A stretch of 64,000 nucleotides of DNA, taken from positions 32,001 through 96,000 of the IMG/VR virus record IMGVR_UViG_3300033146_004128, one strand, 5' to 3'. The notes beneath the pieces were generated by a model, which saw only the letters and a list, made by a program, of their open reading frames with translations, did no database searches and was not told the DNA's origin. Position 1 is the first letter of the stretch, and each line of letters opens with the position of its first letter. Below are positions 26,916-62,826 of this stretch, piece by piece. The translations under genes and the position numbers were made by a program. Origin of the DNA: a virus.

Positions 26916-27788
26916 TTATACATATAGACCAGGCTCACCGAATGTCTTATGTACATCATTCTTGAATTCTGATACTCTCTTTTTTCTCTTATCTATAAAT
27001 CTATCTATACCATAGTATGTACCTGCAGCAGTAATTCCAAGTCCAACTATTCTATTCTTCGCCTTCGAGCTTTCTCTAGCTTCAGATATCTTCTTGCCCG
27101 TCTTCTTGACACTCTTTACTATTTTAGCAACTGATGCTTTTTTCTCTAGCATGTCTTTCTTCTTTCGTGTCTGCATTATATATTGAGCAGGCTCTATGGC
27201 ACTAAGTCCAAGCATGCCTGCAGCGAGAAGACCTGATCCAAATCTCTTTGTCTTGAATAGATTTCCGATATTGCTAAACTCTCTACCTGTAGCAGTAAGA
27301 ACCTTCTTGGGTGATAGTATGTTCTTAACCATCTGCTTTGTTCCTATCTTCCCAGACTGTTTCATTTGATGCATTGTATTAAGAAATGCACCGGTTCCTA
27401 TTGTTCCAGACGCCACAGCAGGAGCAGCTATTGATGCGAAGTGACCAGCATTAAACTTCTTGTCGTTTCCATACTTATCACTTGCCTTTCCAACAAGATG
27501 CTCAGCCGGTAAAGTTACTGCTGTCCCTGCAGCGGCACCAAGAGCAGTATTTCTGAGCATCCTGCCACCTGACGCTAGCATACCTATTCCTTTTGCTCTG
27601 CCTTTCCATACTGGTATTGCATTGAATAAGGCTGTAGCACCTGCTGACCATCCAGCTGCTTCAAGTAAGCTTGGGGATTCTTGTTTCTTCTTTTGCTTCT
27701 GTAGGACGTCAGGAACTCTTCTAACTGCTTCTTCTGGTAGACTCTCAAGGACTTGTTGTCCTCCGGGCTTATTCGATATATTTGCCAT
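26916..27788 (-). CDS. Lys-rich glycine-zipper membrane protein with K-x-A motif
   Basis: G/A-rich hydrophobic helices flanked by Lys runs; LEKKAS. Confidence 0.8.
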   Translation of the reverse strand: MANISNKPGGQQVLESLPEEAVRRVPDVLQKQKKKQESPSLLEAAGWSAGATALFNAIPVWKGRAKGIGMLASGGRMLRNTALGAAAGTAVTLPAEHLVGKASDKYGNDKKFNAGHFASIAAPAVASGTIGTGAFLNTMHQMKQSGKIGTKQMVKNILSPKKVLTATGREFSNIGNLFKTKRFGSGLLAAGMLGLSAIEPAQYIMQTRKKKDMLEKKASVAKIVKSVKKTGKKISEARESSKAKNRIVGLGITAAGTYYGIDRFIDKRKKRVSEFKNDVHKTFGEPGLYV

Positions 27789-30954: not shown

Positions 30955-31033
30955 TGAATGATACTATCAGTACGAAAGAGAATATAGCAATACTAGAGGA
31001 TAGTATCACTGTGTACATAGAGTCTTTTATCAT
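30860..31033 (-). CDS. small membrane protein (57 aa, absent from ORF track)
   Basis: MIKDSMYTVILSSSIAIFSFVLIVSFTTIGILMIARK...; ATGA overlap with upstream gene. Confidence 0.6.
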   Translation of the reverse strand: MIKDSMYTVILSSSIAIFSFVLIVSFTTIGILMIARKICCTAIARKILPPFTSMCSD

Positions 31034-31257
31034 ATCTTCTTCTTCCTTACGCCTTTGGTTCCCATTCTTGGAGCACGGTACGGTCTCTTAACAGACTTCA
31101 TGTAGCGAACGCTCTTTGCTTGAGGTTTTCTCTGGTACTCGGAGTAGCTCATCGCCTCCTTGTCCGCATCTATGTTGTTTTCTGGGGATACCTCTTCAGG
31201 TGTCCTTCCTGATAGTTTCTTGCCAGCAACATTTTTCTTCTTGCTACACTTTTTCAT
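31030..31257 (-). CDS. small highly basic protein
   Basis: 75 aa, K/R-rich; AAAGGA SD; TGTTATAAT at 31285-31293 (minus). Confidence 0.7.
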   Translation of the reverse strand: MKKCSKKKNVAGKKLSGRTPEEVSPENNIDADKEAMSYSEYQRKPQAKSVRYMKSVKRPYRAPRMGTKGVRKKKI

Positions 31258-32555: not shown

Positions 32556-33632
32556 ATGAAGATCACAAAACATGTTGACTTTGACAGTCTCCTATCTAAA
32601 ACAGCATCAAGAGAAGATATAATTGAAGCCCTAAAGATAGATGATGAACTTAAAGATCAGCAGAATGATAAGACAGCAGAGACTAAATCGGAAAAAGCTA
32701 TGGCAGACACAGCTCAAGTGGGTGCACTCGGAGCAGGTGCAGTAGCATACGCAGGACATGCAAGAGCTAAGAAGCAGCTGGGCAAGCTTGGTAAGAAGCT
32801 CAAGAAAGCCAAAGATGCAGAAGCATATGCATCAAGACCTTTGGGACAAAAAGTGAAAGATTACTTTTCCGACATGATAAAAGGTCCTAAGAAGAAGAAG
32901 CCTCTAAGTGAGAAGATCATGAAGAAGATGAACAAGGTTAACGCTAGAGGCAAAAAAGGTGCGCTTGTTGCTATGGGAGCAGCCGGTACTACAGCAGCCA
33001 TTGGTGCATACAGATCATACAAAGGCAACAAGGACAGCCAGGGAAAGCTTGACAAGACTGCGGCCTCAGAAGAAGTTCGTGGTCAGATTGCCAATGATGT
33101 AGAGAGAGATAGTACACCTGAGGGTGGTGCCAAGTATAGAGGTACTCAGGGTGCAATCGTTGGTGGACTTGCAGGGTTTATGCATGGTGTGTCAAAGAAG
33201 AGCCCAATCAAAGGCAAGAAAGCAAAAATTGTAAGAGGGCTATGGCACGGAACATCTGGAGCAGTATGGGCAGGCGGTGCCGCTGGTGCAACTACCTATG
33301 CTAAAAAGAAGCTAATGCCTGACAGCGCAGAAGACAAGCAGAAAGAGTTTGAAAGCAGATTGGAGAAGAGAGCATCTGTTCCTATCGCTGTAAAAACAAC
33401 ACAAAAAGGGAAAGGTCTCGTAGCTGCCATATCAGGGCTATTCAAGAAGAAAACTAAGCCAACACTTAACCAAGGAAGAATAGCCAAAAGCCCTCAACAG
33501 AGAAAGCTTGAAGCTCAAGCAGCAAGCAAGAAGAGGAGCGTAAAGAAGATCAATTACGGTGAAGCTTACAGTATGGACAACAACTATAAAGACTTACAGA
33601 AGATGAGAGGAATACAAAGCAGATGGTCGTAG
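32556..33632 (+). CDS. Lys-rich glycine-zipper polyprotein-like virion protein with four K-x-A motifs
   Basis: LSKTAS, NDKTAE, LDKTAA, LEKRAS separating G/A-helix modules. Confidence 0.8.
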   Translation: MKITKHVDFDSLLSKTASREDIIEALKIDDELKDQQNDKTAETKSEKAMADTAQVGALGAGAVAYAGHARAKKQLGKLGKKLKKAKDAEAYASRPLGQKVKDYFSDMIKGPKKKKPLSEKIMKKMNKVNARGKKGALVAMGAAGTTAAIGAYRSYKGNKDSQGKLDKTAASEEVRGQIANDVERDSTPEGGAKYRGTQGAIVGGLAGFMHGVSKKSPIKGKKAKIVRGLWHGTSGAVWAGGAAGATTYAKKKLMPDSAEDKQKEFESRLEKRASVPIAVKTTQKGKGLVAAISGLFKKKTKPTLNQGRIAKSPQQRKLEAQAASKKRSVKKINYGEAYSMDNNYKDLQKMRGIQSRWS

Positions 33633-33928
33633 AAAAACAAGCCTCAACAGCAACAGGCAGAAGAGTTGCAGAACTTATGGGCATGGGGCAAGCGTCTCGT
33701 GCCACTAAGGTATTACGAAAGAGTATGGGAACAAAGCATGTCAGCACAGGTGATGTCCTTCGCACTAAGTCTATTCGAAAAGTGAAGAAAGAAGAGATAC
33801 CAGGAATAGGAACACTCAAGACAGTAAAGAGAAATACTCCAAAGGAAGACAAGTCAGTAATAAGACTAAGGTCAGCACGATCAAAGAATAAGCCATTATT
33901 CATACAAGATAAAGTAAGGGGCAAATAA
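33623..33928 (+). CDS. small highly basic protein with N-terminal K-x-A motif
   Basis: MVVEKQAS; K/R-rich. Confidence 0.75.
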   Translation: MVVEKQASTATGRRVAELMGMGQASRATKVLRKSMGTKHVSTGDVLRTKSIRKVKKEEIPGIGTLKTVKRNTPKEDKSVIRLRSARSKNKPLFIQDKVRGK

Positions 33929-34893
33929 TGAAATACTCGGTAAGAAATACCAAGGCATTAGAGAAGAGAGCAGGCACAGTAGTAAATATCCATAATGGAG
34001 ACAGCAACAAAGATGATACTCCAAAGGGAGAGAACGCAGTAACTAAGGGACTAAGAGCAGGTGCCGGTGCTGGTGCTGCTGCCACTGTTGCGAGAGGTGT
34101 CATAGAAGATCATGAGGGTGACACAGTCCTTGGTCATGCTAAGAAGCTAAAGCAACACAAGGCTGATGCCAAGAAGAATGCAGAGAAGGCAAGTGCTGCC
34201 AAAGAGAAAGCTCACTCATTAAAAGACAAGTGGTTTGCATGGGGAGAGAAGTCTAAAGCTCAGAAGAACTACAGGTTCTACAAGAGTAGAGAGAAGAACT
34301 ATGCAAATACAGCAAAGAAACTCTCTAAGAAGCTATCTTCTTCAGCACGAGCTAAACTTGCATTGCCGGCATCAGTAGGTTCTGCATTGGCAGGAGCATC
34401 ATACTTCACATCGAACAAAGATGAGAGAGATGAGGCACGTAAAGCTAAAGAGCAGAAGTCACTAAAAAAGACAGCAGCAGAGAAGAAGAAAGACCAGACA
34501 GCCAATAAGGTTGGAGCAGCACTTGCAGGAACTGTTGCCGGTGGTGGAGTTCTTGGTGGATACTCTGCATACAAAGGTGCACAGGATAAAGAAGATGGCA
34601 AGAACAATGTAGGTAAGCACGCTGCAGGTCACGCTGCATTAGGTGGAGCTGTTACATACAAAGCTGTAAGCAGTATGGAAAAAGCTCATAACGCAGCAGT
34701 AGATGCACATAACAAGAAGCTAAGGAATACATTCAAGCAGGTTGGTAAACTGAAGATAGGGAAAGGTAAGGTTGCTGCCGTAGGAGCAGGAATTACTGGA
34801 GCACTCGGAGCAGGAAGATATGCTGCAGGAAGATTATTCACAGATACTCAAGCGAAAGACAAGACAAAGTCTGTAGCGAAAAAGGAAAAATAG
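33928..34893 (+). CDS. Lys-rich glycine-zipper polyprotein-like protein
   Basis: LEKRAG, LKKTAA; five G/A-rich helices. Confidence 0.8.
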   Translation: MKYSVRNTKALEKRAGTVVNIHNGDSNKDDTPKGENAVTKGLRAGAGAGAAATVARGVIEDHEGDTVLGHAKKLKQHKADAKKNAEKASAAKEKAHSLKDKWFAWGEKSKAQKNYRFYKSREKNYANTAKKLSKKLSSSARAKLALPASVGSALAGASYFTSNKDERDEARKAKEQKSLKKTAAEKKKDQTANKVGAALAGTVAGGGVLGGYSAYKGAQDKEDGKNNVGKHAAGHAALGGAVTYKAVSSMEKAHNAAVDAHNKKLRNTFKQVGKLKIGKGKVAAVGAGITGALGAGRYAAGRLFTDTQAKDKTKSVAKKEK

Positions 34894-37302
34894 ATGAAAA
34901 GTCAAGTAACATCGAAGTTAACACAGCTCATCAATGATGAGGCAATGAAACAACTGGCAGACAACTATCATGAGTTGTTGCCTAAGCTCATAAAGATAGA
35001 TATAGATCACATCGAAGAAGATATGTCGTATGCTGTAGGTGCTGCCTATTTCATGATTGACAAGAGAATTATCTTTACTCCTATTATATACAGAGACGGA
35101 GCTGTTGACTCTATCTCTTATATAGGTGACACAGAGAACGAGACTCTATATGGTCTCACAAAGAGAATGTATAAGAGACTCATCAGTTCATCTAAGACAG
35201 AGTTTGGTAAAGCATTGTCAGAGAAAGAGCAAGAGAGACTTCTTATTGATAAAGGTATCATTGGAAGACTGTTCGCTACACCTCAGACAATATCTCCAAA
35301 GGTTGCCAGTGATGAGAACTACGAAGATAACATCATCATCGATATGCTAGACAGCCCTATCTTTGCAAAGTCTTTCGAGAAGTTGGCATCAATGCCTGCA
35401 TACAGAGAAGTACTTAACAAGGTGTATGGAGACAGAGTGTTTGAGAAGCTGGCGTCAGTCAACACCCTCCATAAGCTTGCATCTATAGATAGAGATGAAG
35501 ATGGATCAATGACATTCAACAGTATCTCTGATCTAAACTCTCTTCCTAAGAACAAGCGTGGTGAAGCAGCAATGGCTATTGCGAAAGAAGGCTTCTACAA
35601 GGTAGCATCAGCAGAGCCTACAAAGTCAGTTGCATTGAGGATCCCTACCATGGGAGAGCTTTTGATGAAGGCAAAGTCTAAGCTAGAGGTTCTTACAGAG
35701 CCAGGTATCTATAATGCTATTACGAAAGACCTTCGTCTTGTTCCTGCTATAGTTGCAAGACATGGGTCAGGGAATAAGAACTATATCTACTACCATGACA
35801 GTACAGCACTGGTTCAGAATGGTAGTCAAGAGCCAAGAAGCAAGAGGGGTGCATACAATTCACCTGAGAACCTTACTGGGTATCTAGGTATGGAGGCAGG
35901 TGCATTCAATGATGATCCTAGAAGTCATATCATATCTGTGTTTGGAGAAGAGAGAAAGCCTGTCAATGCAGACAAGTTGGTTATAACAGCATCGAAAGAT
36001 GACATCATTGTATACTCTATCAACAGTGTTACGAGAGTTGGAAAAGAGATTGTCGTAGATGTATGGTCTGATCCATCATCTGAGTCAATAGTGATAGGTG
36101 AAGCATACGGATACACCAAGAAGGAAAATACTACATACATACATCCTAACCATGTTCTGTTCCTAGGCAGGAAGTCAGGTCTCTCTCATGTAGGAGAGAG
36201 GAATAAAGCACACCCTCTGTCAGAGCTTATGACTACTGATGATATAGACAGTGCCTTTGTGAAGACAGCATCGTTTGATGTTACTTACTCTGCAGGTAGA
36301 TATTTCTATGGTAATGAGAGGCTAAGTAAGCCTGAATTAATCAATGAGTTAAGAGAAACTGGGTATGATAACGAAAGTATAAGCACGATTGTTAAAACAG
36401 CTCAGGACGCAGGCGGTATGCCTGTTGACTTCAACGAGATTTCTCTCACACTGAAGGCTATCCTGTCTGAGATAACTGAATCCAAAATACTCATGACTGA
36501 CTTACGTTCAGCTATGATGGCAGCACAAGGAATTGGAAATGGCGAGACTACAGAACAACCGCAACCGCAGGGGCAACCAGCGCAAACACCACAAGGCAAT
36601 CAGGGGCAACCAGAGCAAGCCACAGGGCAAGAAGGGCAGCCTGCAGGGGCTGATGGACAATCTGACCCAGCAGTTCAGTCTATTATGGAGTTGGCTGCTT
36701 CAGTGGGAGCAGACGGACAAGCGGTACTCCAAGCCGGTCAACAACAAGGTATGGAACCAGCACAAATAGCTCAACAGCTTCAGCAGGAGATATCACAAAT
36801 GCAGGGTGGCGGTGAACAACCACAGCCACAGCAAGGCGCAGGGCAAGGTTCTCCTATGGAGCAAGACATGGCTGCTCAAGGTCAGCAGATGGCAGGACAA
36901 GATCCTAGTCAGATGCAAGGACAAGCACAAAGTCCTCAGGTAGCAGGACAAGATGGTTCAGAGAGAACAACAGAAGAGCTACAACAGCAAGGGTATAACC
37001 CTAACATGACACCGGAGATGTTGGATCAGTTACAGCAGATAGCAGACAAGGATGTTCTTAATGCATCTATCATCTCTTATCTTGTTGACACTCCGGACGC
37101 AAAAGCAGTTACAAGTCAGTATATAGATGATATCACACGAGGTGTTAATGGTCTAGCTAGAACACTTCTTCTAGTAGAGATACAGAGAACATCATTTAAT
37201 GACCAGATTGGAGACAAGCAGTTGAACACATTCTTATCAAGAGGTAAGACACTCCTTAACCGTATGACAGACTTCGTTATAGATGTATCCGTTATAGACT
37301 AA
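34894..37302 (+). CDS. large putative virion/scaffold protein with seven K-x-A(S) motifs and a Q/G/P-rich linker
   Basis: KVAS x2, KLAS x3, KTAS, KTAQ; Q-rich stretch at about 36530-37010. Confidence 0.8.
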   Translation: MKSQVTSKLTQLINDEAMKQLADNYHELLPKLIKIDIDHIEEDMSYAVGAAYFMIDKRIIFTPIIYRDGAVDSISYIGDTENETLYGLTKRMYKRLISSSKTEFGKALSEKEQERLLIDKGIIGRLFATPQTISPKVASDENYEDNIIIDMLDSPIFAKSFEKLASMPAYREVLNKVYGDRVFEKLASVNTLHKLASIDRDEDGSMTFNSISDLNSLPKNKRGEAAMAIAKEGFYKVASAEPTKSVALRIPTMGELLMKAKSKLEVLTEPGIYNAITKDLRLVPAIVARHGSGNKNYIYYHDSTALVQNGSQEPRSKRGAYNSPENLTGYLGMEAGAFNDDPRSHIISVFGEERKPVNADKLVITASKDDIIVYSINSVTRVGKEIVVDVWSDPSSESIVIGEAYGYTKKENTTYIHPNHVLFLGRKSGLSHVGERNKAHPLSELMTTDDIDSAFVKTASFDVTYSAGRYFYGNERLSKPELINELRETGYDNESISTIVKTAQDAGGMPVDFNEISLTLKAILSEITESKILMTDLRSAMMAAQGIGNGETTEQPQPQGQPAQTPQGNQGQPEQATGQEGQPAGADGQSDPAVQSIMELAASVGADGQAVLQAGQQQGMEPAQIAQQLQQEISQMQGGGEQPQPQQGAGQGSPMEQDMAAQGQQMAGQDPSQMQGQAQSPQVAGQDGSERTTEELQQQGYNPNMTPEMLDQLQQIADKDVLNASIISYLVDTPDAKAVTSQYIDDITRGVNGLARTLLLVEIQRTSFNDQIGDKQLNTFLSRGKTLLNRMTDFVIDVSVID

Positions 37303-38105: not shown

Positions 38106-39935
38106 ATGGGATCAACGTTTAGTGGAAAATTATACGACAGAAGGTTTATGGGTAAGTATAATAACCTATCCAGTGTATACGCAGACATTCTGCCAAATGA
38201 TATCAAGGAAGTCATACAGTGGTCAGAGTTCATTGTAGCAAACGTACCTACTGTAGCATCAGCATTGGACAAGATGTCAAGTGTTGCCATTACAGCTCTA
38301 CAGTATATGACGTCAGACCTTACAGAGATGTCTTCGACAGACGCTAAGTCATGGAAGAATATCCTTGAAGAAGAAATGGACATAGAAGAGAAGCTACAAG
38401 AGATAGGGTTCAACTATCTTCTTAACGGTAACGTATTCCTATCTGTGTTCTTCCCAGTACATAGAACTGTTACATGCATGAAGTGCAAGACTTCACTGTC
38501 ACAGGAGAGATTCTCTTCAGTAAGCAAACTGAAGCCAGAGATGGAAGAGATGCTAGTGCAGAACAATGGTAAGAGAGACGGAAAGAAGATGCCAGGAGAG
38601 AAACAGCACTCAAAGAAGAAGGTGTTGGTATTCAAGGGTGCTTGTCCTGCCTGTGCATCAAAGTCAATATTCACCATACAGGACATAAAGGTGAAGAATA
38701 TGCAAGGGGTAAATGTTGTTAACTGGCCTGTGAACAGTATGAACTTCGTATCTGACAACATCACAGGTAGGAGTACATATTACTACAAGATGCCAAACTC
38801 AACAAAGAAGATGATCACTTCAGGGTTCCTTGACATGCTATTCCATCAGCCATTAGATATGATAGAGTCAGCAGTAAACAATACAGCAGTAAAGTTTGAT
38901 CAGGATAAGATTCTACATATAAAGAGAAAGAAGATGTCCGGGACAAACACAGGATGGGGAATGCCTATACTTACCTCATCGATACCAGAGATGATCTCTC
39001 TACTCTTGCTTAGAAAGTCTCAAGAGAGAATACTATCGGATATGATATTCCCGTTACGAGGATTGTCACCAAGGGCAGCAGGGTCTGATGGTAACGCAGT
39101 GTACAACTTCATGTCCGGAAGTGACCTGACGAAGAAGGTAGAGGCTATTCTGATGCAACATAAGAACAATCCTACCTCTGTAAAGTTCTTCCCTATACCT
39201 CTAGACCAAGTGAATGCATTCGGAGAGGGTAAGGCACTCAACCTAAGCGAAGAGATAGACCAGATATCTACAATGATTATGACTTCTATTGGTGTACCTA
39301 TTGAGTTCGTAAAAGGTGGTCTTGGATATACAGCTGCCGGTGCATCTATTAGAGTGCTTGAAAACCAGTTGATGGGACTAACAAACTCTATGGAGAAGGT
39401 AGCAAACTTTGTAGCCAAGCAGATAGCAACATTCACAGATAAGAAACAGGTAAGGATTAAGATTACTCCATTCAGAATCATCGATGACCTTGCAGAGAAG
39501 CAAATCTTACTTCAAATGTACCAAGGACAGAAAGTATCAGATCACACTATGGCATCTATGTTCAAGCTCGATGCGAAGACAGAGAACGACAGAATGGAAG
39601 AGGAAGCAAAAGCAGGTGCAAGAACACAGGCTGCTGTGCAAGAGTATATGCAGAACATATCTCAGAACCTCGAAGAGAAGGCAAAGACAGAGGCTATGCT
39701 ATCTCAGAGTTCTACTCAGCAAGTCAATCAACAAGCTATCATGCAAGAGGCAGATCAGATGGCAGCACAGTTACAGCAGATGGAATCCGGGCAGCGTAAG
39801 TCAGAGATGGATCGTCTTCAGAAAGAGAACTGGCTATTATATGTTGCTACTAAGGAACGCATGGAGTTCAATGGTCGCAAGGACGCTACACAGGCTGCGC
39901 AACAACAACAAGCTGAACAGCAAGGAGGAATGTAA
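38106..39935 (+). CDS. portal protein-like, with CxxC..CxxC insertion
   Basis: VPTVASALDKM, NYLLNGNVF, KILHIK..S...GWGMPIL, long helical Q-rich C-terminus. Confidence 0.65.
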   Translation: MGSTFSGKLYDRRFMGKYNNLSSVYADILPNDIKEVIQWSEFIVANVPTVASALDKMSSVAITALQYMTSDLTEMSSTDAKSWKNILEEEMDIEEKLQEIGFNYLLNGNVFLSVFFPVHRTVTCMKCKTSLSQERFSSVSKLKPEMEEMLVQNNGKRDGKKMPGEKQHSKKKVLVFKGACPACASKSIFTIQDIKVKNMQGVNVVNWPVNSMNFVSDNITGRSTYYYKMPNSTKKMITSGFLDMLFHQPLDMIESAVNNTAVKFDQDKILHIKRKKMSGTNTGWGMPILTSSIPEMISLLLLRKSQERILSDMIFPLRGLSPRAAGSDGNAVYNFMSGSDLTKKVEAILMQHKNNPTSVKFFPIPLDQVNAFGEGKALNLSEEIDQISTMIMTSIGVPIEFVKGGLGYTAAGASIRVLENQLMGLTNSMEKVANFVAKQIATFTDKKQVRIKITPFRIIDDLAEKQILLQMYQGQKVSDHTMASMFKLDAKTENDRMEEEAKAGARTQAAVQEYMQNISQNLEEKAKTEAMLSQSSTQQVNQQAIMQEADQMAAQLQQMESGQRKSEMDRLQKENWLLYVATKERMEFNGRKDATQAAQQQQAEQQGGM

Positions 39936-41883: not shown

Positions 41884-42174
41884 ATGTATGATAAAGAAGC
41901 ATTAAGTATGAAGCTTACGGCAATGAAGAGACTGCAGAGTAAGTACGCTGGTCTTGCCAGTGAAGCCACTGAGCAAGCAAACATAATAAAGAGTATAGAT
42001 GGGGCAAGCAAAGAGGCTCTGAACTATGCCAGGATCGGAGAGAGCAGCGAAAAGAAACTGTACTCTCTTAGAGACAAGATAAAAAGTAAGGTATCAAAGA
42101 GATACAAGAAGATATACAAGACAGAGCCAACCATGCTAGGAAAGCTTACTCGGCTCATACAAGGTAAGAAGTAA
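41884..42174 (+). CDS. small basic coiled-coil protein with N-terminal K-x-A motif
   Basis: MYDKEAL. Confidence 0.75.
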   Translation: MYDKEALSMKLTAMKRLQSKYAGLASEATEQANIIKSIDGASKEALNYARIGESSEKKLYSLRDKIKSKVSKRYKKIYKTEPTMLGKLTRLIQGKK

Positions 42175-52622: not shown

Positions 52623-53338
52623 TAGCTGATGTGCAGATGGAAATAACAACGGTATGTAATATGGCATGCTTCTATTGCCCTATCGAGGACATGCCACATA
52701 AACATATGGATCTTGCGCTGGCCAAGGAGATTGTTGACCGGTATGATAAAGGTTCAATGTTCATGCTCAATGGTACCGGAGAGCCAACATTGTATCCGCA
52801 TCTTCTTGAGCTTGTTACTTATATTGTGGACAATGGGAAGCTAGCAAACTTCATTACAAACGGAGTGAACTGTGTAGATGAGGACATACTTAGATTGCTT
52901 GATCACATAGCCTTCTCTGTTGATGACTCAGATACAGACAAGAATGTGAAGACACTAGAGAATGCAGAAAAAGCAATACGTCATGCATGCTCAATAATTG
53001 GAGGCGGAAAAGTTTCTACAATGACTGCTGACTATGGTCAAGATTTGTCAAAGATAAAAGCATTCAGTGAAGAGCTTGGGTTCACGATGAGAAAGCAGAG
53101 GCTGCAACCAAAGGCGTCATATCAAAAGAAGTATTCTATACCTGGGCATAAGCCAAACAGGCTTGAATGTCCATATATAAAGTTCTCGTATATGGATTTC
53201 TATTTTCAGAACGGAACAAAGGCACCATGCTGTTTCATGGTATATGAAGAGCAAAGCATGTCACGTGATGAAGTTGAGAAATCCCTTAATAAGGGAATAG
53301 TTCCAGAGTGCTGCTCCGGATGCTACTTAATGAAATAA
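52619..53338 (+). CDS. radical SAM protein with short SPASM/Twitch-like C-terminus
   Basis: CNMACFYC (CxxxCxxC), GTGEPTL, FITNG, CPY...G..APCC, C-terminal CxxC. Confidence 0.9.
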   Translation: MIADVQMEITTVCNMACFYCPIEDMPHKHMDLALAKEIVDRYDKGSMFMLNGTGEPTLYPHLLELVTYIVDNGKLANFITNGVNCVDEDILRLLDHIAFSVDDSDTDKNVKTLENAEKAIRHACSIIGGGKVSTMTADYGQDLSKIKAFSEELGFTMRKQRLQPKASYQKKYSIPGHKPNRLECPYIKFSYMDFYFQNGTKAPCCFMVYEEQSMSRDEVEKSLNKGIVPECCSGCYLMK

Positions 53339-53392
53339 TTGTAGAGTGAAGATAGTTATGGCATAATTACATATTGAAAACAGGAGATTGCT

Positions 53393-53995
53393 ATGGCAGG
53401 TGCGTTATGGAAAAAAGAGGTCGTTATACGTCAGAACTCAACAATAGGAATAGTGGCAGCTCAGAACTGGACAAAAAATTGGCTTGCTAGCTTCCAAGAT
53501 AATCCAGTAAACATTGATGAAAATGGAGACTACATAGATCACTTCTTTGGAGATCTCTTTGATGCAAGAACCGGAAACTTGTATAGGATATTCTCAGATG
53601 CTGCAGGCGTTAAATATAGCATGCCAAATGTAATCTTTGACGTACTTATAACTTCTAAGTTTGTGCCATGGGATAGCGTAAGTGATAATCCCGATCTTGC
53701 CACCGATGAAGACTTTCTTATTACTAGAGGTGGTGTTGCTGATGTAATAGATGAGTTTATTAGTGAGGCAAAGATAATCAATGATGGTGGGATAATCAAC
53801 AATAATAAAATAACCCTGTCGAATACTCCAGTAGGAGGTATAATTGGGGGGACATGTAGGATCAAGATAGGAGCAGTAAATGTGTTCGACGAGGTTGACT
53901 GTGTAGCCAATGGGAATATCCTTACTGTGCTTCCTGATCAAGGTGTAGACTACGAGGGAGAAATGTGTCTTGTCAGCTATCTAATTAACACATAG
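53393..53995 (+). CDS. hypothetical structural protein
   Basis: 200 aa; AGGAG SD; TGGCATAAT at 53359-53367. Confidence 0.8.
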   Translation: MAGALWKKEVVIRQNSTIGIVAAQNWTKNWLASFQDNPVNIDENGDYIDHFFGDLFDARTGNLYRIFSDAAGVKYSMPNVIFDVLITSKFVPWDSVSDNPDLATDEDFLITRGGVADVIDEFISEAKIINDGGIINNNKITLSNTPVGGIIGGTCRIKIGAVNVFDEVDCVANGNILTVLPDQGVDYEGEMCLVSYLINT

Positions 53996-54014
53996 TGCTT
54001 TTTGGACAACACTA

Positions 54015-54023
54015 TGCTATAAT
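54015..54023 (+). promoter_or_regulatory. extended -10 TGCTATAAT
   Basis: Intergenic, upstream of 54050. Confidence 0.7.
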
Positions 54024-54049
54024 AAAATAAAATTTTTAAGGAAGAAGAT

Positions 54050-54751
54050 ATGTTGAGAGATGCAATTTCTGGCCAAGAATACGATAAAGAGGCTATCTTG
54101 GGAGGAGCACTGCTTGCCGGCGGTAAAATGATAAAGTCTCTCGGTAGTGGAATAGGCAAGTTAGGGTCTGGTAAAATTTCAAAAGTTGGAAAAAATATGA
54201 AGTCTTGGGCCACTAATAGGAATAAGGCACTACAGACGAGAATGACCAAGACAGATAACCTCATCAAGAAGAATGGATTAGAGAACAATCTTGGCGTTGG
54301 TGGAAGCATAGGTAAGAGTCTACTTAGACACACAAAGCAGAGTGGAGGTTTTGTAAGTTCAAAACTTAACTCTCTGGGAAAAACTCTCATTAACAGACGT
54401 AGTGTAAAAATAAAGGCTAAAAAGACTGGTCCGTATGATCTGAATGACATCAATACAAAAGGACCTACCAGTGGTGGAGGTTCTGGAACCACAACTACGA
54501 CCTCAAGCACAACAAGTAGCACAGGTGCACAGCATGGGCCAAGAACACCTCAAGAAGAAATAGACTTCCTTAAAAATAAAAATAAAAAGCTAAAAAAGAA
54601 GAGCAAGAACAACTCTTTGCTTGATGCATACAAGACTACAAAGCTACATAAAAACTACGGGAACACCCCTCTTTACGCAGCCGGTGGCGTTGCTGCTTAT
54701 GCTGCAGGTGGAGGATTGGGCGGTGGTCCAACCGTAGTTAACAACGGATAA
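54050..54751 (+). CDS. basic Gly-rich protein with N-terminal K-x-A motif
   Basis: EYDKEA followed by ILGGALLAGGKMIKSLGSGIGKLG amphipathic segment. Confidence 0.8.
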   Translation: MLRDAISGQEYDKEAILGGALLAGGKMIKSLGSGIGKLGSGKISKVGKNMKSWATNRNKALQTRMTKTDNLIKKNGLENNLGVGGSIGKSLLRHTKQSGGFVSSKLNSLGKTLINRRSVKIKAKKTGPYDLNDINTKGPTSGGGSGTTTTTSSTTSSTGAQHGPRTPQEEIDFLKNKNKKLKKKSKNNSLLDAYKTTKLHKNYGNTPLYAAGGVAAYAAGGGLGGGPTVVNNG

Positions 54752-58578: not shown

Positions 58579-61500
58579 ATGACAAGTCTTAACAGGGATC
58601 ACAATGAGATAAATGAAGCTATTCACAATGAGATAGTTAAGGCTTTCGAGGGAAGAAAGGTAGAGGGAAAGACAAAGACTCTTGAGTACTCCAATGTGAC
58701 AGGAGCAAAAGCAGACATGTCATACCGAAAGCTAACAGATGCAATAAACTCAGGTGGAACAATAGCTAGAAAATATAAAGCTGATGTTACGATAAGAGAT
58801 AACGAGACCGGTAAAGTACTTGATAAGAAGAGTGGTGTACATATAGGGGAGACTCCAATTTACACAAAGAAGGGTGGGTTGGTTGTTGACGGGAATACAT
58901 ACAACCTTCCTAGCCAGATAAGACTTAAGCCTGGTGCGTATACTCTCAACAAGGCAAATGGCGATGTTGAGACTATGATGAACGTAAAGAACGGAAGAGG
59001 TATGAAGCTTGTATCTCCTCAGGACAAAGATGATGTAAAATTGCAGATAGGTTCAAGACAGTTTAATCCTCTTGATGTCGCAAAGATACTTGGTGCAACG
59101 GATAAGGAATTGTCATCAAACATAGGTAAAGATGTTGCTGCTCACTTAAATAAGAAGTCGAATGTTGAAGGAACAGCACTTAAGCTATCTCAGACCCTTG
59201 GGCTTGTCGGTCCAGACATAACACCTCCACACAAAGAAGTGATATCAAATCTACGAGATTATTTTGGAAAGACTGAGCTAGATACAAGCGTAACTACTCA
59301 TACACTTGGAAGGGCAATAGATAAGATTGATAAAGATGCGATAATGCTTGGTATCAAAAGGAATGTTGCTGTCAAGAGAGGGACAGAAGAGGAAGATGAC
59401 AAAGAAAACCTAATGTTCAAGAAGATTATCCCTCCAGAGAAACTTATGGTAGAGGGTGTAAAGAGGGACCTAATGAAGCCAGAGGCAAGAATGAAAGGTC
59501 TTCTGAATAACCCATTTAACCATGCAAGCATAACAGAGGTTCTTTCTGAGCCTACATTGAAGCATGCAGCAAAGAAGTTTGTGACAACAAGTGCGATCTC
59601 AAGAATGCCTGAAGAGTACAATCCATTACATACATTGCAAGGGAGTAGTGATATAACTCCATTGGGAGAAGGCGGTATAACATCTACCGAGATGATAACA
59701 CCATCTGTAAGGTCACTACACCTATCACAGCTTGGATTTATAGACCCTATAAAGTCTCCAGAGGGTGCAAACACTGGAGTCACATTAAGTACGACTCACG
59801 GGGCTTATATAGACGACAAGGGTAATGCTGCCATGAAGGTTAAGAACTTAAAGTCTGGGAAGATTGAGACAAAGACTGTGGCAGACCTATGGGACAAGAA
59901 GATAGCGTTCCCTGATCCAAACAAAAAAGGAGAGGTTGGCATAAGACACAAGAGCGATATCAGTGTAGGCAAGATGAAAGATGCTGACTATCAGATAACG
60001 CACTCTGAGAATATGTATGGGCCGGCTATGAACTCTCTTGGAATAATAAGTTCAAATGACCCAACCAGAAACCTTATGGCATCAAAGCATGTCATGCAAG
60101 CACTTCCTCTTGTTGATGGCGATGCTAACCCGGTAAGTCTGCTTGGAGCAAATGGAAAGAGTATGCTAGCAAACATAGCATCGAAGCACTTGCCTACTGC
60201 GAGTGTTTCCGGGACTGTTACAAGGGTTGATACTAGAGCTGGGAAGATACACTATAAAGATTCGTCTGGAAAAGAACACAACAGTGACTACGCTATATCT
60301 CCAATGCAATTAAATACAAAGACTTTCATACAGCATTCTCCTATAGTTAAAGCAGGAGACAAAGTAGAGGCAGGACAGGCTCTCGCTGATTCAAACTTCT
60401 CTAAGGGTGGAGAATTGGCCATAGGAAAGAATCTTAGAACAGCATGGATGATGTACCCAGGTACAAGAAATGATGCATTCGTATTGTCTGAGTCTGCAGC
60501 TAAAAAGATGACATCGGTACACTCTTCAAAGTTTGATATAGATGGGACAAAAGGTACGATACTGGATAAGAAGAAGTTTGCAGCCATGTTCCCAGAGGTT
60601 GTTAAGAAGATAAGCCTTGACAAATATGATGACAGGGGGATAATTCTTCCTGGTCAGACAGTGGCTAAAGATGAACCAATCGTTCTAGGCATGAAAAAGA
60701 TGGATCCATCAGAGGTCAGATTTGCAAATGACAAAGTAAAAAAATTACTATATGGCGGAATGGCACCGGTTATGCAAAAATGGAAGGGAGACAATTCAGC
60801 AACCATATCTCATGTCACAACCAAAGGATCCCAGCATAGAGTTATTGCTCAGTACAAGGCAGAGATGAAGACTGGAGATAAGCTTGCAGGTAGATCTGGA
60901 AACAAAGGTATTATCTCAGCTGTTATCCCAGACAAGGAGATGCCTAGAGATGAGAATGGAAAGCCTATAGAGCTTATACTTGGTGGTGCTGGTGTTAACT
61001 CAAGACAGAACCCTGCTCAGATCATAGAAGCTCAACTTACGGAGGTAGCAAAGAAGACAGGGAAGAAGTACGTACTTCCTCACTACACTCATGATGATCT
61101 TCATATATTTGCAAACAACGAGGCAAAGAAGAACAATGTGAACATGTATCATGAAATATACGACCCTGTAAGAAAGACCAAATTGAAGAATAAGGTATTT
61201 GTGGCAGACTACAATGTAATGAAGTTGTTCAAGCAGGGAGAGGGGACATACTCAGCAACAGGTCATGGCCCGGTTGACTCATTGAACCAACCGAAGAAAG
61301 GAGGAAAAGAGTCTGCGGCATCGATATCTAATATGGAGATAAACTCTCTATTGTCACATGACGCAAGAGACTTCCTCAAAGAGGTTGGAACAGTAAAATC
61401 ACAGAGAAACCAAAAGTGGTTCTCTGCATTTGAGTCAGGAGCTATACCGCCTGCACCTGAGAAGAAGTCTGCTAGGGACAATTTTCATGGGCTTCTGAAC

Positions 61501-62826
61501 CAACTCAACATATCAGTGAGAGAGGACGGAACAAGTAAACACATAGTACCTCTAACGGATAAAGATATAGTAAGGAAAAGTAGTGGTAAAATTATTGAGC
61601 CGTATGGTCTTAAGCGTAATACTCTGGATGCTGTCAGTGGCGGCTTTTATGACACTAGTGTATTTGGTGGACATGGTGAAAACTTCGGTCACATAGATCT
61701 TGGATCACATATCATTAACCCTCTATACAAAAAGCCAGTGGCGGCTATGATGGGTACCACAGAAAAAGGTCTAGATAAGATGATGGAGTCAGAGGGCATA
61801 TCAAACATATACAAAAAGATAAGTGGCTCAAGACTAAAGTCAACAGTGAATAGGTTAAAGAAAGACATAGAGAAGACTAAAGATACATCAAAAATAGACA
61901 GAAGCATGAAGGCGATAAAGGCTCTAAGAAAGATAGATAGTCTTGGAGATAACCCTGCAGACGTTATGTTTATGTCAAAAGTTCCGGTATTGCCTGTGAA
62001 GATGAGACCAATATCTAAACTTCCAGACGGCAGTATTATCGAGCATGATGTAAATCATCACTATGCGAACATAATAAGGGCGTCAAATTCTTTACAGAGA
62101 GCAAATGAATCCGATACTCCGGCACCAATAAAGAACAGACTTCATAGAGAGCTACAGGACCATGTTGGGGCAATGTACGGAACAAACAAATCTCCTGATC
62201 CAAAGATGGAGAGAAAAGAGGTCAAGAGCGTAATGGATGTTGTGGCCGGCTCAAACCCAAAGACATCTTTTTGGCATCAAAAGATACTTAAGAATAAGGT
62301 TTTTGGATCAGGTAGAGCTGTAATTGTTCCACACATAAAGACTATGAATATGGACCAAGTAGAGATACCTAAGTATGTAGCATGGAAAGCGTTTGAGCCT
62401 CATATAACAAGACGCATGTCTCAGATGGGTATACCTAATGATATGGCGAAAGACATGATTGACAAGAAGAACGAGACAGCAACCAATGTTCTGCATAGCG
62501 TTATGAAGGAGGTTCCGGTTGTTATAAACAGAGCACCTGCTCTTCATAAGCACAATATGACAGGACACTACGCAAAGATATCATCCGGAAATACAATGCA
62601 TATACCTCCTGAGATAGAGAATGGTCAAAATGCAGACTACGACGGAGATCAACTTGCAGTACATGTTCCTCTTGGGCATGCTGCAATAAAGGATGTTAAG
62701 ACAAAGCTTATGGCGTCAAAGCAGTTGTTTACTGATACGTCTAAGAATGGTCTGACAATGGGAATAGACTTGGATCCTTTTATAGGATTCTATGATGCTA
62801 CAAAACATAAGAATGGTAAAAAGTAA
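58579..62826 (+). CDS. rpoBC: phage two-barrel DNA-directed RNA polymerase: beta fused to the N-terminal (catalytic) part of beta'
   Basis: Beta motifs: GETP.YT..GG..VDG, SPEGANTG, LMASKHVMQALPL, GDKLAGRSGNKG, NSRQN. Beta' motifs: FGHIDL, VPVLP..MRP, GRAVIVP, NRAPALH, NADYDGD. Confidence 0.95.
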   Translation: MTSLNRDHNEINEAIHNEIVKAFEGRKVEGKTKTLEYSNVTGAKADMSYRKLTDAINSGGTIARKYKADVTIRDNETGKVLDKKSGVHIGETPIYTKKGGLVVDGNTYNLPSQIRLKPGAYTLNKANGDVETMMNVKNGRGMKLVSPQDKDDVKLQIGSRQFNPLDVAKILGATDKELSSNIGKDVAAHLNKKSNVEGTALKLSQTLGLVGPDITPPHKEVISNLRDYFGKTELDTSVTTHTLGRAIDKIDKDAIMLGIKRNVAVKRGTEEEDDKENLMFKKIIPPEKLMVEGVKRDLMKPEARMKGLLNNPFNHASITEVLSEPTLKHAAKKFVTTSAISRMPEEYNPLHTLQGSSDITPLGEGGITSTEMITPSVRSLHLSQLGFIDPIKSPEGANTGVTLSTTHGAYIDDKGNAAMKVKNLKSGKIETKTVADLWDKKIAFPDPNKKGEVGIRHKSDISVGKMKDADYQITHSENMYGPAMNSLGIISSNDPTRNLMASKHVMQALPLVDGDANPVSLLGANGKSMLANIASKHLPTASVSGTVTRVDTRAGKIHYKDSSGKEHNSDYAISPMQLNTKTFIQHSPIVKAGDKVEAGQALADSNFSKGGELAIGKNLRTAWMMYPGTRNDAFVLSESAAKKMTSVHSSKFDIDGTKGTILDKKKFAAMFPEVVKKISLDKYDDRGIILPGQTVAKDEPIVLGMKKMDPSEVRFANDKVKKLLYGGMAPVMQKWKGDNSATISHVTTKGSQHRVIAQYKAEMKTGDKLAGRSGNKGIISAVIPDKEMPRDENGKPIELILGGAGVNSRQNPAQIIEAQLTEVAKKTGKKYVLPHYTHDDLHIFANNEAKKNNVNMYHEIYDPVRKTKLKNKVFVADYNVMKLFKQGEGTYSATGHGPVDSLNQPKKGGKESAASISNMEINSLLSHDARDFLKEVGTVKSQRNQKWFSAFESGAIPPAPEKKSARDNFHGLLNQLNISVREDGTSKHIVPLTDKDIVRKSSGKIIEPYGLKRNTLDAVSGGFYDTSVFGGHGENFGHIDLGSHIINPLYKKPVAAMMGTTEKGLDKMMESEGISNIYKKISGSRLKSTVNRLKKDIEKTKDTSKIDRSMKAIKALRKIDSLGDNPADVMFMSKVPVLPVKMRPISKLPDGSIIEHDVNHHYANIIRASNSLQRANESDTPAPIKNRLHRELQDHVGAMYGTNKSPDPKMERKEVKSVMDVVAGSNPKTSFWHQKILKNKVFGSGRAVIVPHIKTMNMDQVEIPKYVAWKAFEPHITRRMSQMGIPNDMAKDMIDKKNETATNVLHSVMKEVPVVINRAPALHKHNMTGHYAKISSGNTMHIPPEIENGQNADYDGDQLAVHVPLGHAAIKDVKTKLMASKQLFTDTSKNGLTMGIDLDPFIGFYDATKHKNGKK

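Follow-up and report, generated by a model that had tools for sequence, protein, structure and literature searches.

Within a 64,000-nucleotide stretch of virus DNA, referred to here as the window (bases 32001-96000 of the 187,664-bp IMG/VR record IMGVR_UViG_3300033146_004128), three successive genes encode strongly basic proteins that share a short Lys-x-Ala (K-x-A) motif. These open reading frames (ORFs), ORF1, ORF2 and ORF3, raise the question of what the motif is for. The original prediction, made from the letters of the region, was that K-x-A is a maturation cleavage or packaging signal which splits polyproteins into cationic modules, and our comparative evidence supports the cleavage part of that proposal well. 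We give a probability of about 0.62 to the reading that ORF1-3 encode basic internal head proteins in precursor form, which the phage's own head protease trims at K-x-A. In window coordinates, which are used throughout unless genome positions are named, the three genes are:

32556..33632, + strand: ORF1, 358 amino acids, net charge +41, a predicted polyprotein-like precursor with a Shine-Dalgarno-like sequence ahead of its reading frame
33623..33928, + strand: ORF2, 101 amino acids, net charge +19; VEKQAS (residues 3-8; 33629-33646) ends a predicted 7-residue leader
33928..34893, + strand: ORF3, 321 amino acids, net charge +38, a two-module fusion with leader site LEKRAG and junction site LKKTAA

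ORF2 and ORF3 are likewise preceded by Shine-Dalgarno-like sequences, and the three genes overlap or abut one another and the gene that follows. Scans of ORF1-3 and their neighbors with Pfam and PHROG gave no match for ORF1-3, and neither megablast of the region nor tblastn of ORF1 found a match in 50,697 phage records. The record has direct terminal repeats, an estimated completeness of full and a GC content of 0.40, and nearly all genes in the window lie on the + strand. The phage is of virulent type, 188 kb long and related to Salmonella phage Arash and Vibrio phage D181.

Enrichment and consensus of the K-x-A motif

All eleven motif copies named in the original prediction are present in the translations. 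We counted the motif in the 239 ORFs called in the phage genome, taking as expectation the counts obtained when residues were shuffled within each protein. The pattern [LIVMFYWA][DESK]K.A[SAG] occurred 29 times against 8.0 ± 2.9 expected (z 7.3, 3.6-fold); bare K.A was mildly enriched genome-wide (320 against 285). As the pattern had been picked after viewing the phage genome, the same pre-set pattern was re-tested on the whole genomes of Arash and D181, two cultured relatives found via the protease described below. It was again in excess in Arash (GC 53%; 22 against 6.2, z 6.5) and in D181 (18 against 6.8, z 4.3), showing the motif to be commoner than Lys/Ala composition predicts in all three genomes.

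An unbiased count of all residue pairs, either adjacent or separated by one or two positions, in eight head-module proteins per relative placed K.A first of about 500 patterns in both Arash and D181 (z 6.1 and 6.7), with L.K and K..S, both parts of the same motif, in the next ranks. Among exact X.YZ triples in whole proteomes, K.AS ranked 11 (z 3.8) in the phage genome and fell outside the top 12 in Arash and D181. The exact-triple level thus hides the signal, which emerges only when the motif is made degenerate or the count is restricted to head modules.

The excess is concentrated in few genes. Twelve proteins held 41 motif copies against 4.4 expected, whereas the remaining 227 held 18 against 22.0, which is chance. 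The carriers are the prohead protease, the N-terminus of the capsid protein, acidic scaffold-like proteins, an 802-residue protein and ORF1-3.

A consensus was drawn from 91 copies in the multi-site proteins of the three phages, the pattern itself demanding Lys and Ala. Leu stood at P5 in 50 copies and Glu at P4 in 33; P2 was Val, Glu, Ile, Thr or Gln (Glu in 16), and the residue after Ala was Ser (46), Ala (21), Glu (14) or Gly (10). No Glu was found at a fixed distance downstream in the 91 copies, which do not follow the P1-Glu rule in any of its forms ((L/I)-x-E, S/A/G-x-E, A-x-E). The possibility that the motif is a disguised A-x-E or L-x-E site was rejected because of this lack of a fixed Glu. 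Inspection of the sequences also led us to reject signal-peptidase cleavage at A-x-A, since the leaders are short, hydrophilic stretches and Lys occupies P3.

Within ORF1-3 themselves the motif excess was marginal (3 against 0.62, 1 against 0.08 and 3 against 0.70; p 0.03-0.08), because these proteins are rich in Lys and Ala. The same counts would fit an alternative that attributes the ORF1-3 copies to Lys/Ala-rich composition, the proteins being small, basic, membrane- or nucleic-acid-binding and outside the virion, and the real substrates lying elsewhere in the genome. It draws further support from LSKTAS in ORF1 and two loose matches in ORF3 not being conserved. The count being unconvincing alone, the case for ORF1-3 rests on where the sites lie.

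Site positions and predicted modules in ORF1-3

Relatives of ORF1 are few: a search of 5.8 billion proteins gave seven clusters, and a profile search of 1.84 billion representatives gave 18 at E<=1e-3. We aligned the conserved module and its flanks for 17 family members and compared full ORF1 with eight close homologs. The features resolved in this way are:

32667..32684, + strand: site NDKTAE, residues 38-43, predicted leader end; K-x-A-[E/S] kept in 7/8 close homologs
33048..33065, + strand: site LDKTAA, residues 165-170, directly upstream of the module; K167 and A169 invariant in the eight homologs
33063..33374, + strand: conserved module of about 104 residues (170-273), with four helices, a Gly/Ala hairpin and GxxxGxxxG
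33360..33377, + strand: site LEKRAS, residues 269-274, at the downstream edge of the module; of 14 members extending beyond it, about 12 retain it as L-E-K-x-A-[S/G]

K-x-A at the LDKTAA site was kept in 15 of 17 family members, or 16 when a three-residue shift is counted, and both module-flanking sites keep their position down to about 21-28% identity. The expectation that the motif is conserved in homologs was thus borne out at three of the four ORF1 sites and not at LSKTAS. Cutting at the three conserved sites would yield four ORF1 pieces: residues 1-41 as the leader, 42-169 as a basic Gly/Ala stretch, 170-273 as the glycine-zipper module and 274-358 as a basic tail.

The sites also coincide with natural ends and insertions. 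The three members without a continuation (P0017, P0022 and P0026) terminate exactly at the LEKRAS position, and in another relative, P0004, an additional module is inserted, flanked on either side by EKTAS. In relative P0006 an ORF1-like protein is fused to an ORF2-like one, and the junction, MIKTA-QP, aligns with the start, MDKVA-QP, of a stand-alone ORF2-like gene on contig L006 (BLASTP E 9e-28).

ORF3 repeats this arrangement. Its sites are LEKRAG at residues 11-16 (33958-33975) and LKKTAA at residues 179-184 (34462-34479); relatives P0011 (195 residues) and P0012 (184 residues) match its first half only and stop at the LKKTAA junction, and a separate gene at L006:5566-5991 matches ORF3 residues 187-320 (E 3e-20). 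That gene starts nine residues ahead of its own K-T-A, which it includes. Two further loose-pattern matches in ORF3 (residues 81 and 228) were not conserved where relatives could be aligned. The predicted leaders are 7 (ORF2), 15 (ORF3) and 41 (ORF1) residues long, and the leader K-x-A is kept in ORF3 relatives and partly in ORF2 relatives. The ORF2-like leader site in L007 is MDKLSS, so that Ala is not universal at this place.

Such coincidences bear on both alternatives to cutting. The compositional explanation given above does not account for two module-flanking sites held in position at such low identity, for boundaries that are protein ends and fusion junctions, or for genes that adjoin a gp218-like gene and the portal gene, and we regard it as very improbable. 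A second alternative leaves K-x-A uncut, as a docking or targeting element (for scaffold, portal or capsid interior) that recruits full-length proteins into the prohead. Enrichment and conservation alone fit binding as well as cleavage, and T4 capsid-targeting sequences both target and are cleaved. In addition, the strictest conserved part of the ORF1 family is an N-terminal element, VDFDSLLS (residues 7-14; 32574-32597), rather than any K-x-A site. A docking motif, however, need not match protein termini, fusion/fission junctions or module insertions.

The element VDFDSLLS resembles LSLDSLI in Arash gp223, FTLDSLL in D181 0278 and INVSDLV in a 123-residue protein of the phage itself (genome 160417-160788). 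A VDFDSLL-like pattern, chosen post hoc, was present in 3/14 predicted substrates against 4/239 proteins overall. From these sequence resemblances, the element may be a shared head-targeting leader ahead of the first K-x-A site.

An AlphaFold2 model of ORF1, built with a 19-member alignment, was confident from about residue 168 to 272 (predicted local distance difference test score, pLDDT, 87-95), with helices at 166-185, 188-213, 221-253 and 258-274, and scored below 50 in the linkers on either side. The two conserved sites therefore flank the sole confidently folded domain of ORF1. The middle helices (188-213 and 221-253; pLDDT >90) form a Gly/Ala-rich hairpin, the outer ones are amphipathic and acidic/basic, and the second helix carries G203-x3-G207-x3-G211, all invariant or nearly so.

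The description of these proteins as glycine zippers thus holds for the three glycines in ORF1, and the small-xxx-small-xxx-small pattern is above composition in ORF3 (z 3.3); in ORF1 it is not (z 1.5). Among the Pfam Gly-zipper families (PF05433, PF13488 and PF13441), ORF1 had no match and none of the 19 family members exceeded the gathering threshold; below it lay Gly-zipper_YMGG in two members (best E 0.011), Rick_17kDa_Anti in one (0.059) and Gly-zipper_Omp in one (0.092). The predicted hydrophobic helices fared similarly. A hairpin was modeled in ORF1, but the best 19-residue hydropathy was just 0.6-1.15, too low for classical transmembrane helices, and no hydrophobic segment occurs in ORF2. 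Pieces from cutting at the supported sites would have isoelectric points (pI) of 9.1-11.6, with ORF2 at about 11.6 after predicted leader removal.

It is on this hairpin that a third alternative rests. It shares the processing, and takes the glycine-zipper modules to be ejection proteins: hairpins that insert into the envelope and form or line a conduit for DNA, perhaps for the virion RNA polymerase, DNA neutralization being secondary. Besides the conserved GxxxGxxxG and the Gly/Ala hairpin between two amphipathic helices, structure searches point the same way. In the ESM Atlas the neighbors were Gly-zipper 2TM/Rick_17kDa/SlyB-like clusters (template-modeling scores 0.47-0.61, a lead only). 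The top VIA rows were membrane hairpins, with a best VIA-wide Z of 7.5 for Tim17/22/23-type membrane proteins, and SlyB (7ojf_A) at Z 5.9 (root-mean-square deviation 4.7, 63 residues aligned), values no higher than the noise level of helical models. With the ORF1 model as query, Foldseek found no PDB or BFVD entry at E<=1e-3.

A profile of the module, run against the three proteomes (761 proteins), found no paralog in the phage genome and matched only D181 VPHD181_0293 (L036:10314-10574; OZ196140.1 169313-169573), a minimal stand-alone homolog of 86 residues (E 2e-9) that begins MSLVKEA. This gene lies directly after the PAAR spike-tip gene VPHD181_0292, which together with the RNA polymerase chains found in Arash particles would suit an ejection role. 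No comparable gene follows PAAR in Arash, and the phage genome has no Pfam PAAR match; PAAR adjacency was thus seen in D181 and not in Arash, and is unconfirmed as a general feature.

The structural matches to membrane hairpins all lie below the level meaningful for helical hairpins, the Pfam Gly-zipper models stay sub-threshold and touch 1-2 of 19 members, hydropathy does not exceed 1.15 and ORF2 has no hydrophobic segment. We consider the ejection role unlikely. A more specific version is somewhat less likely again: the code would release head-stored glycine-zipper hairpin peptides that are ejected first and build a membrane conduit for the genome and the virion RNA polymerase. Such an envelope-crossing device could explain the minimal D181 homolog beside a spike-tip gene.

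The head protease and other candidate substrates

The main reading, in which ORF1-3 are cut in the head, calls for an enzyme and for further substrates. The enzyme, the capsid protein and the scaffold-like proteins are encoded outside the window, at the following genome positions:

167147-168445 (L009:4147-5445), - strand: prohead protease, 432 amino acids; phrog_18299 'head maturation protease', E 6.5e-13
128936-129913 (L001:2936-3913), + strand: major capsid protein, 325 amino acids; BLASTP to Arash gp226, E 2e-36
130445-131467 (98445-99467 in extended window coordinates, genome minus 32000), + strand: acidic scaffold-like or precursor protein, 340 amino acids, two genes after the capsid gene; 6 motif copies against 0.24 expected
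146270-147505, - strand: acidic scaffold-like or precursor protein, 411 amino acids; 5 copies against 0.43
147787-149241, - strand: acidic scaffold-like or precursor protein, 484 amino acids; 9 copies against 0.99

Relatives of the protease found by tblastn were D181 0277, Arash gp222, Bacillus phage G gp19 and Rhodococcus phage E3 gp77, which is annotated as a prohead protease; phage G gp19 is listed as a head maturation protease (PMC12484599). In a three-way alignment of the enzymes of this phage, D181 and Arash (31-34% identity), H89 and S140 were invariant, as was K-x-A at residues 29-31, 212-214 and 331-333. The first of these sites lies before the catalytic domain and the second directly after the strand that ends it (FFDIS-V-x-x-PAD). 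The protease holds three motif copies against 0.29 expected, with the post-domain site FQKVAS at residue 210. In phage G gp19 (L035:11704-12606) the corresponding post-domain position is occupied by LEKVAS, and LLKIAS follows 26 residues further on; K.A was weakly enriched in the head module of phage G (20 against 11, z 2.8), whose capsid protein lacks an N-terminal K-x-A. Sites laid out in this way are what a self-releasing protease core would be expected to show; such self-release is documented for SPN3US gp245 and discussed as conserved in related phage proteases (PMC5694885, PMC10052503).

Residues 24-29 of the capsid protein read FVKEAA; the hexamer in the same position is LVKEAG in Arash and LTKEAG in D181. 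In both relatives the copies cluster around the protease gene: gp220 (8), gp221 (2), gp222 (3), gp223 (7) and gp225 (5) in Arash, and 0275-0278 (3, 2, 4 and 10) in D181. One short motif is thus common to the capsid protein N-terminus, the protease domain boundary, the scaffold-like proteins and the internal-protein candidates. Docking would not require the motif to mark, in four phages, the exact point where the protease catalytic domain stops, or to be repeated 6-10 times within acidic scaffold-like proteins. Both the docking-only and the compositional explanations are disfavored because they leave the boundary coincidences unexplained, and docking alone seems to us decidedly improbable.

Two side observations concern this part of the genome. 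Directly downstream of the protease gene, a 458-residue protein (genome 165770-167146, - strand) without a family match, its C-terminal part Gly/Ser-rich and beta-helix-like, is encoded where a capsid or scaffold gene would usually stand; here the capsid protein is encoded 37 kb off. A GroEL-like chaperonin is encoded at genome 136766-138202 (- strand; phrog_5725, E 6.5e-57).

Within the window, ORF1-3 are followed by two genes that connect them to the head:

34894..37302, + strand: 802-residue protein directly downstream of ORF3, with five motif matches (residues 161, 183, 192, 234 and 455)
38106..39935, + strand: portal protein, 609 amino acids; BLASTP E 7e-60 to Arash 128120-129859 and E 4e-70 to D181

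The 802-residue protein also has PKVAS near residue 137, and its five matches compare with 0.34 expected (p 3e-5). All its sites are kept in L006 and L007 despite diverged flanks. Its C-terminus is homologous to Arash gp218 (142729-144576; BLASTP E 4e-8), whose gene sits in the Arash head module and which gave 1149 spectra in Arash particles (PMC10585845). The 116 particle-associated proteins of Arash include the protease gp222, gp218, gp220, gp221, gp223 and gp224 along with many replication enzymes, in a virion proteome paper that carries no processing analysis (PMC10585845). A Gln/Gly/Pro/Ala-rich low-complexity stretch at residues ~500-700 (36400-37000), which differs in length in L006 and L007, separates the conserved N-terminal two-thirds of the 802-residue protein from its gp218-like C-terminus.

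The portal assignment has in addition a weak match to phrog_64 (portal), and its Arash counterpart would be the annotated portal gp204, judging from its place immediately ahead of gp206. A single co-directional run of overlapping or abutting genes comprises ORF1-3 together with the gp218-like and portal genes, and given the portal gene, ORF1-3 belong to a head-gene cluster. The head genes of this phage are scattered: this run lies inside the window, terminase, the capsid protein and a scaffold-like gene about 60 kb downstream, and the protease about 100 kb downstream on the opposite strand.

Other basic proteins in the window carry one copy each:

31030..31257, - strand: very basic protein of 75 amino acids, ADKEAM at residue 31, possible substrate; DKEA kept in the L006 homolog (2137-2370, minus)
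26916..27788, - strand: basic Gly/Ala-rich protein of 290 amino acids, LEKKAS at residue 214, candidate substrate from its sequence
41884..42174, + strand: basic protein of 96 amino acids starting MYDKEAL, candidate substrate from its sequence
54050..54751, + strand: basic Gly-rich protein of 233 amino acids, YDKEAI at residue 11 followed by a Gly-rich stretch, candidate substrate from its sequence

The single copies at 26916, 41884 and 54050 are indistinguishable from chance, because the rest of the proteome is at its expectation, and the copy in the 75-residue protein is statistically inseparable from chance as well. The C-terminal 40 residues of the latter are extremely basic, so that cutting would release a protamine-like peptide. 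The 54050 protein has only six residues, KEAILG, in common with D181 53338-54141, at the same place (E 0.95).

The virion-associated large RNA polymerase chains (beta-like) of Arash (130093-134670) and D181 (144017-145615) begin, or can begin, MPK[S/K]AS, a start that the RNA polymerase homolog in the window (58579-62826) does not have. From its sequence, MPK[S/K]AS may be an N-terminal packaging or trimming tag of the chains in the two relatives.

Proposed processing route and relation to known systems

Put together, the route that we favor would run as follows. ORF1-3 would be made late with the 802-residue gp218-like protein and the portal, and be built into the prohead. There the prohead protease (a His/Ser enzyme of the T4 gp21/HK97/assemblin kind, encoded 100 kb away) would recognize hydrophobic-x-Lys-x-Ala with Ser, Ala, Gly or Glu as the next residue and cut, probably after the Ala, by analogy with the Ala|Ser sites of assemblin-type enzymes. 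Cutting would remove N-terminal leaders of 7-41 residues and separate the modules, yielding some six products (9-18 kDa, pI 9-11.6), among them the conserved four-helix glycine-zipper module. The same code would trim the capsid N-terminus, free the protease core and chop the acidic scaffold-like proteins into pieces able to exit the head. The basic products would accompany the DNA, acting as counter-ions or as components of the core, and would probably be ejected along with it.

The charge of the proteins and the lack of a hydrophobic segment in ORF2 are the reasons for favoring a DNA-associated internal role. Of the fates originally proposed for the peptides, a DNA-condensing core fits both the charges (+41, +19, +38) and the proximity of the portal. 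An ejection channel is a possibility only, its structural likeness being below significance; an internal membrane is unlikely for a tailed phage, and a role as membrane-active toxins found no support.

Several points weigh against this route, besides the marginal counts within ORF1-3. LSKTAS (ORF1 residues 13-18; 32592-32609) is not conserved, relatives having Gly or Asn in place of Lys. Arash has no detectable ORF1 homolog and D181 only the one of 86 residues. Neither Pfam Peptidase_S77 (T4 gp21) nor Peptidase_S78 (HK97) had a match genome-wide at E<=1, and a PDB sequence search with the protease gave no match at E<=1. Cutting at K-x-A is proposed from sequence comparison, the scissile bond is assumed, and residence of ORF1-3 in the virion is deduced from gene position only. 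Finally, the proteases of T4, phiKZ, 201phi2-1 and SPN3US all cut after Glu (PMC5694885, PMC10052503), and with every characterized relative of this protease type doing so, Lys-x-Ala would be a new specificity. The analogy that the original prediction drew with T4 gp21 and phiKZ gp175 is therefore apt for the process; it does not extend to the code, which has no fixed Glu where those enzymes cut after Glu (PMC5694885).

The proteases of T4, phiKZ and SPN3US remove N-terminal propeptides of internal and ejection proteins, cut long propeptides at multiple sites and auto-cleave at the C-terminus (PMC5694885, PMC10052503). The T4 gp21 system is matched here by a His/Ser prohead protease and by one motif in the capsid N-terminus, in the protease's own termini, in scaffold-like proteins with many predicted cut sites and in small basic candidate internal proteins. 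The short N-terminal leaders of T4 IPI-III and Alt, which are capsid-targeting in T4, have a likeness in small basic proteins whose predicted leaders end in the motif.

The prohead core of T4 includes gp22, gp67 and gp68. The two systems differ in that T4 cuts (L/I)-x-E after Glu while here Lys and Ala are fixed, in that here there are several mature modules per chain with fusions and fissions between relatives, and in the Gly/Ala-rich cargo with its glycine zipper. Homology to IPI-III or Alt was not found, ORF1-3 having no PHROG or Pfam match. The basic internal products of T4 stay with the DNA and are ejected (PMC5694885).

With the systems of phiKZ (gp175), 201phi2-1 and SPN3US (gp245) the phage shares its large size, a virion RNA polymerase, many head-internal proteins and paralogous or modular cargo, as well as, by prediction, propeptide cuts at multi-copy motifs and C-terminal auto-cleavage of the protease. 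In contrast, the enzymes of those phages cut S/A/G-x-E or A-x-E (PMC5694885, PMC10052503), their propeptides are mostly 111-254 residues long against 7-41 for the ORF1-3 leaders, and the cargo has no homology.

Other comparisons are more distant. Herpesvirus assemblin (MEROPS S21) has the release/maturation consensus (V/L/I)-x-Ala|Ser, and resembles the present case in Ala at P1, Ser at P1', a hydrophobic residue upstream and a release site after the protease domain that frees it from a scaffold-like C-terminal portion (compare FQKVAS at residue 210). The register and the invariant Lys at P3 differ here, the virus is bacterial and the scissile bond is assumed. The Gly-zipper 2TM families (PF05433, PF13488, PF13441; E. 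coli SlyB, 7ojf) offer a similar two-helix Gly/Ala hairpin, GxxxGxxxG and similarly low hydropathy. The module differs from them in being sub-threshold in Pfam, phage-encoded, strongly basic and flanked by protease sites, with no lipoprotein signal. In adenovirus, the virion protease, a cysteine enzyme, trims the core and membrane-lytic precursors pVII, pX(mu) and pVI inside the assembled particle. The shared features there are a virion protease and basic DNA-condensing as well as membrane-active precursors, and the likeness is one of analogy only, lineage, protease and motif being unrelated.

A literature search found no paper on a Lys-x-Ala rule for phage proteases, on glycine-zipper internal or ejection proteins, or on processing in phage G. 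As read from sequence, the system works like those of T4 and phiKZ and falls outside both the T4 internal-protein family and the Pfam Gly-zipper families.

If the favored route is correct, phage head-maturation proteases have a second, non-Glu recognition code, hydrophobic-x-Lys-x-Ala, common to a widespread and barely studied clade of large phages that includes the cultured Arash and D181 and, for the self-cleavage site only, phage G. Mature virion proteins, propeptides and capsid cargo would then be predictable from sequence in many uncultured phages. The modules would make up a new basic glycine-zipper family whose precursors are polyproteins open to cutting, with gene fusion and fission shuffling them precisely where the cuts fall. 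This cargo is a testable candidate for neutralizing or organizing packed DNA, or for breaching the envelope, in large phages, and the code could tag foreign proteins for capsid loading, as the T4 capsid-targeting sequence has.

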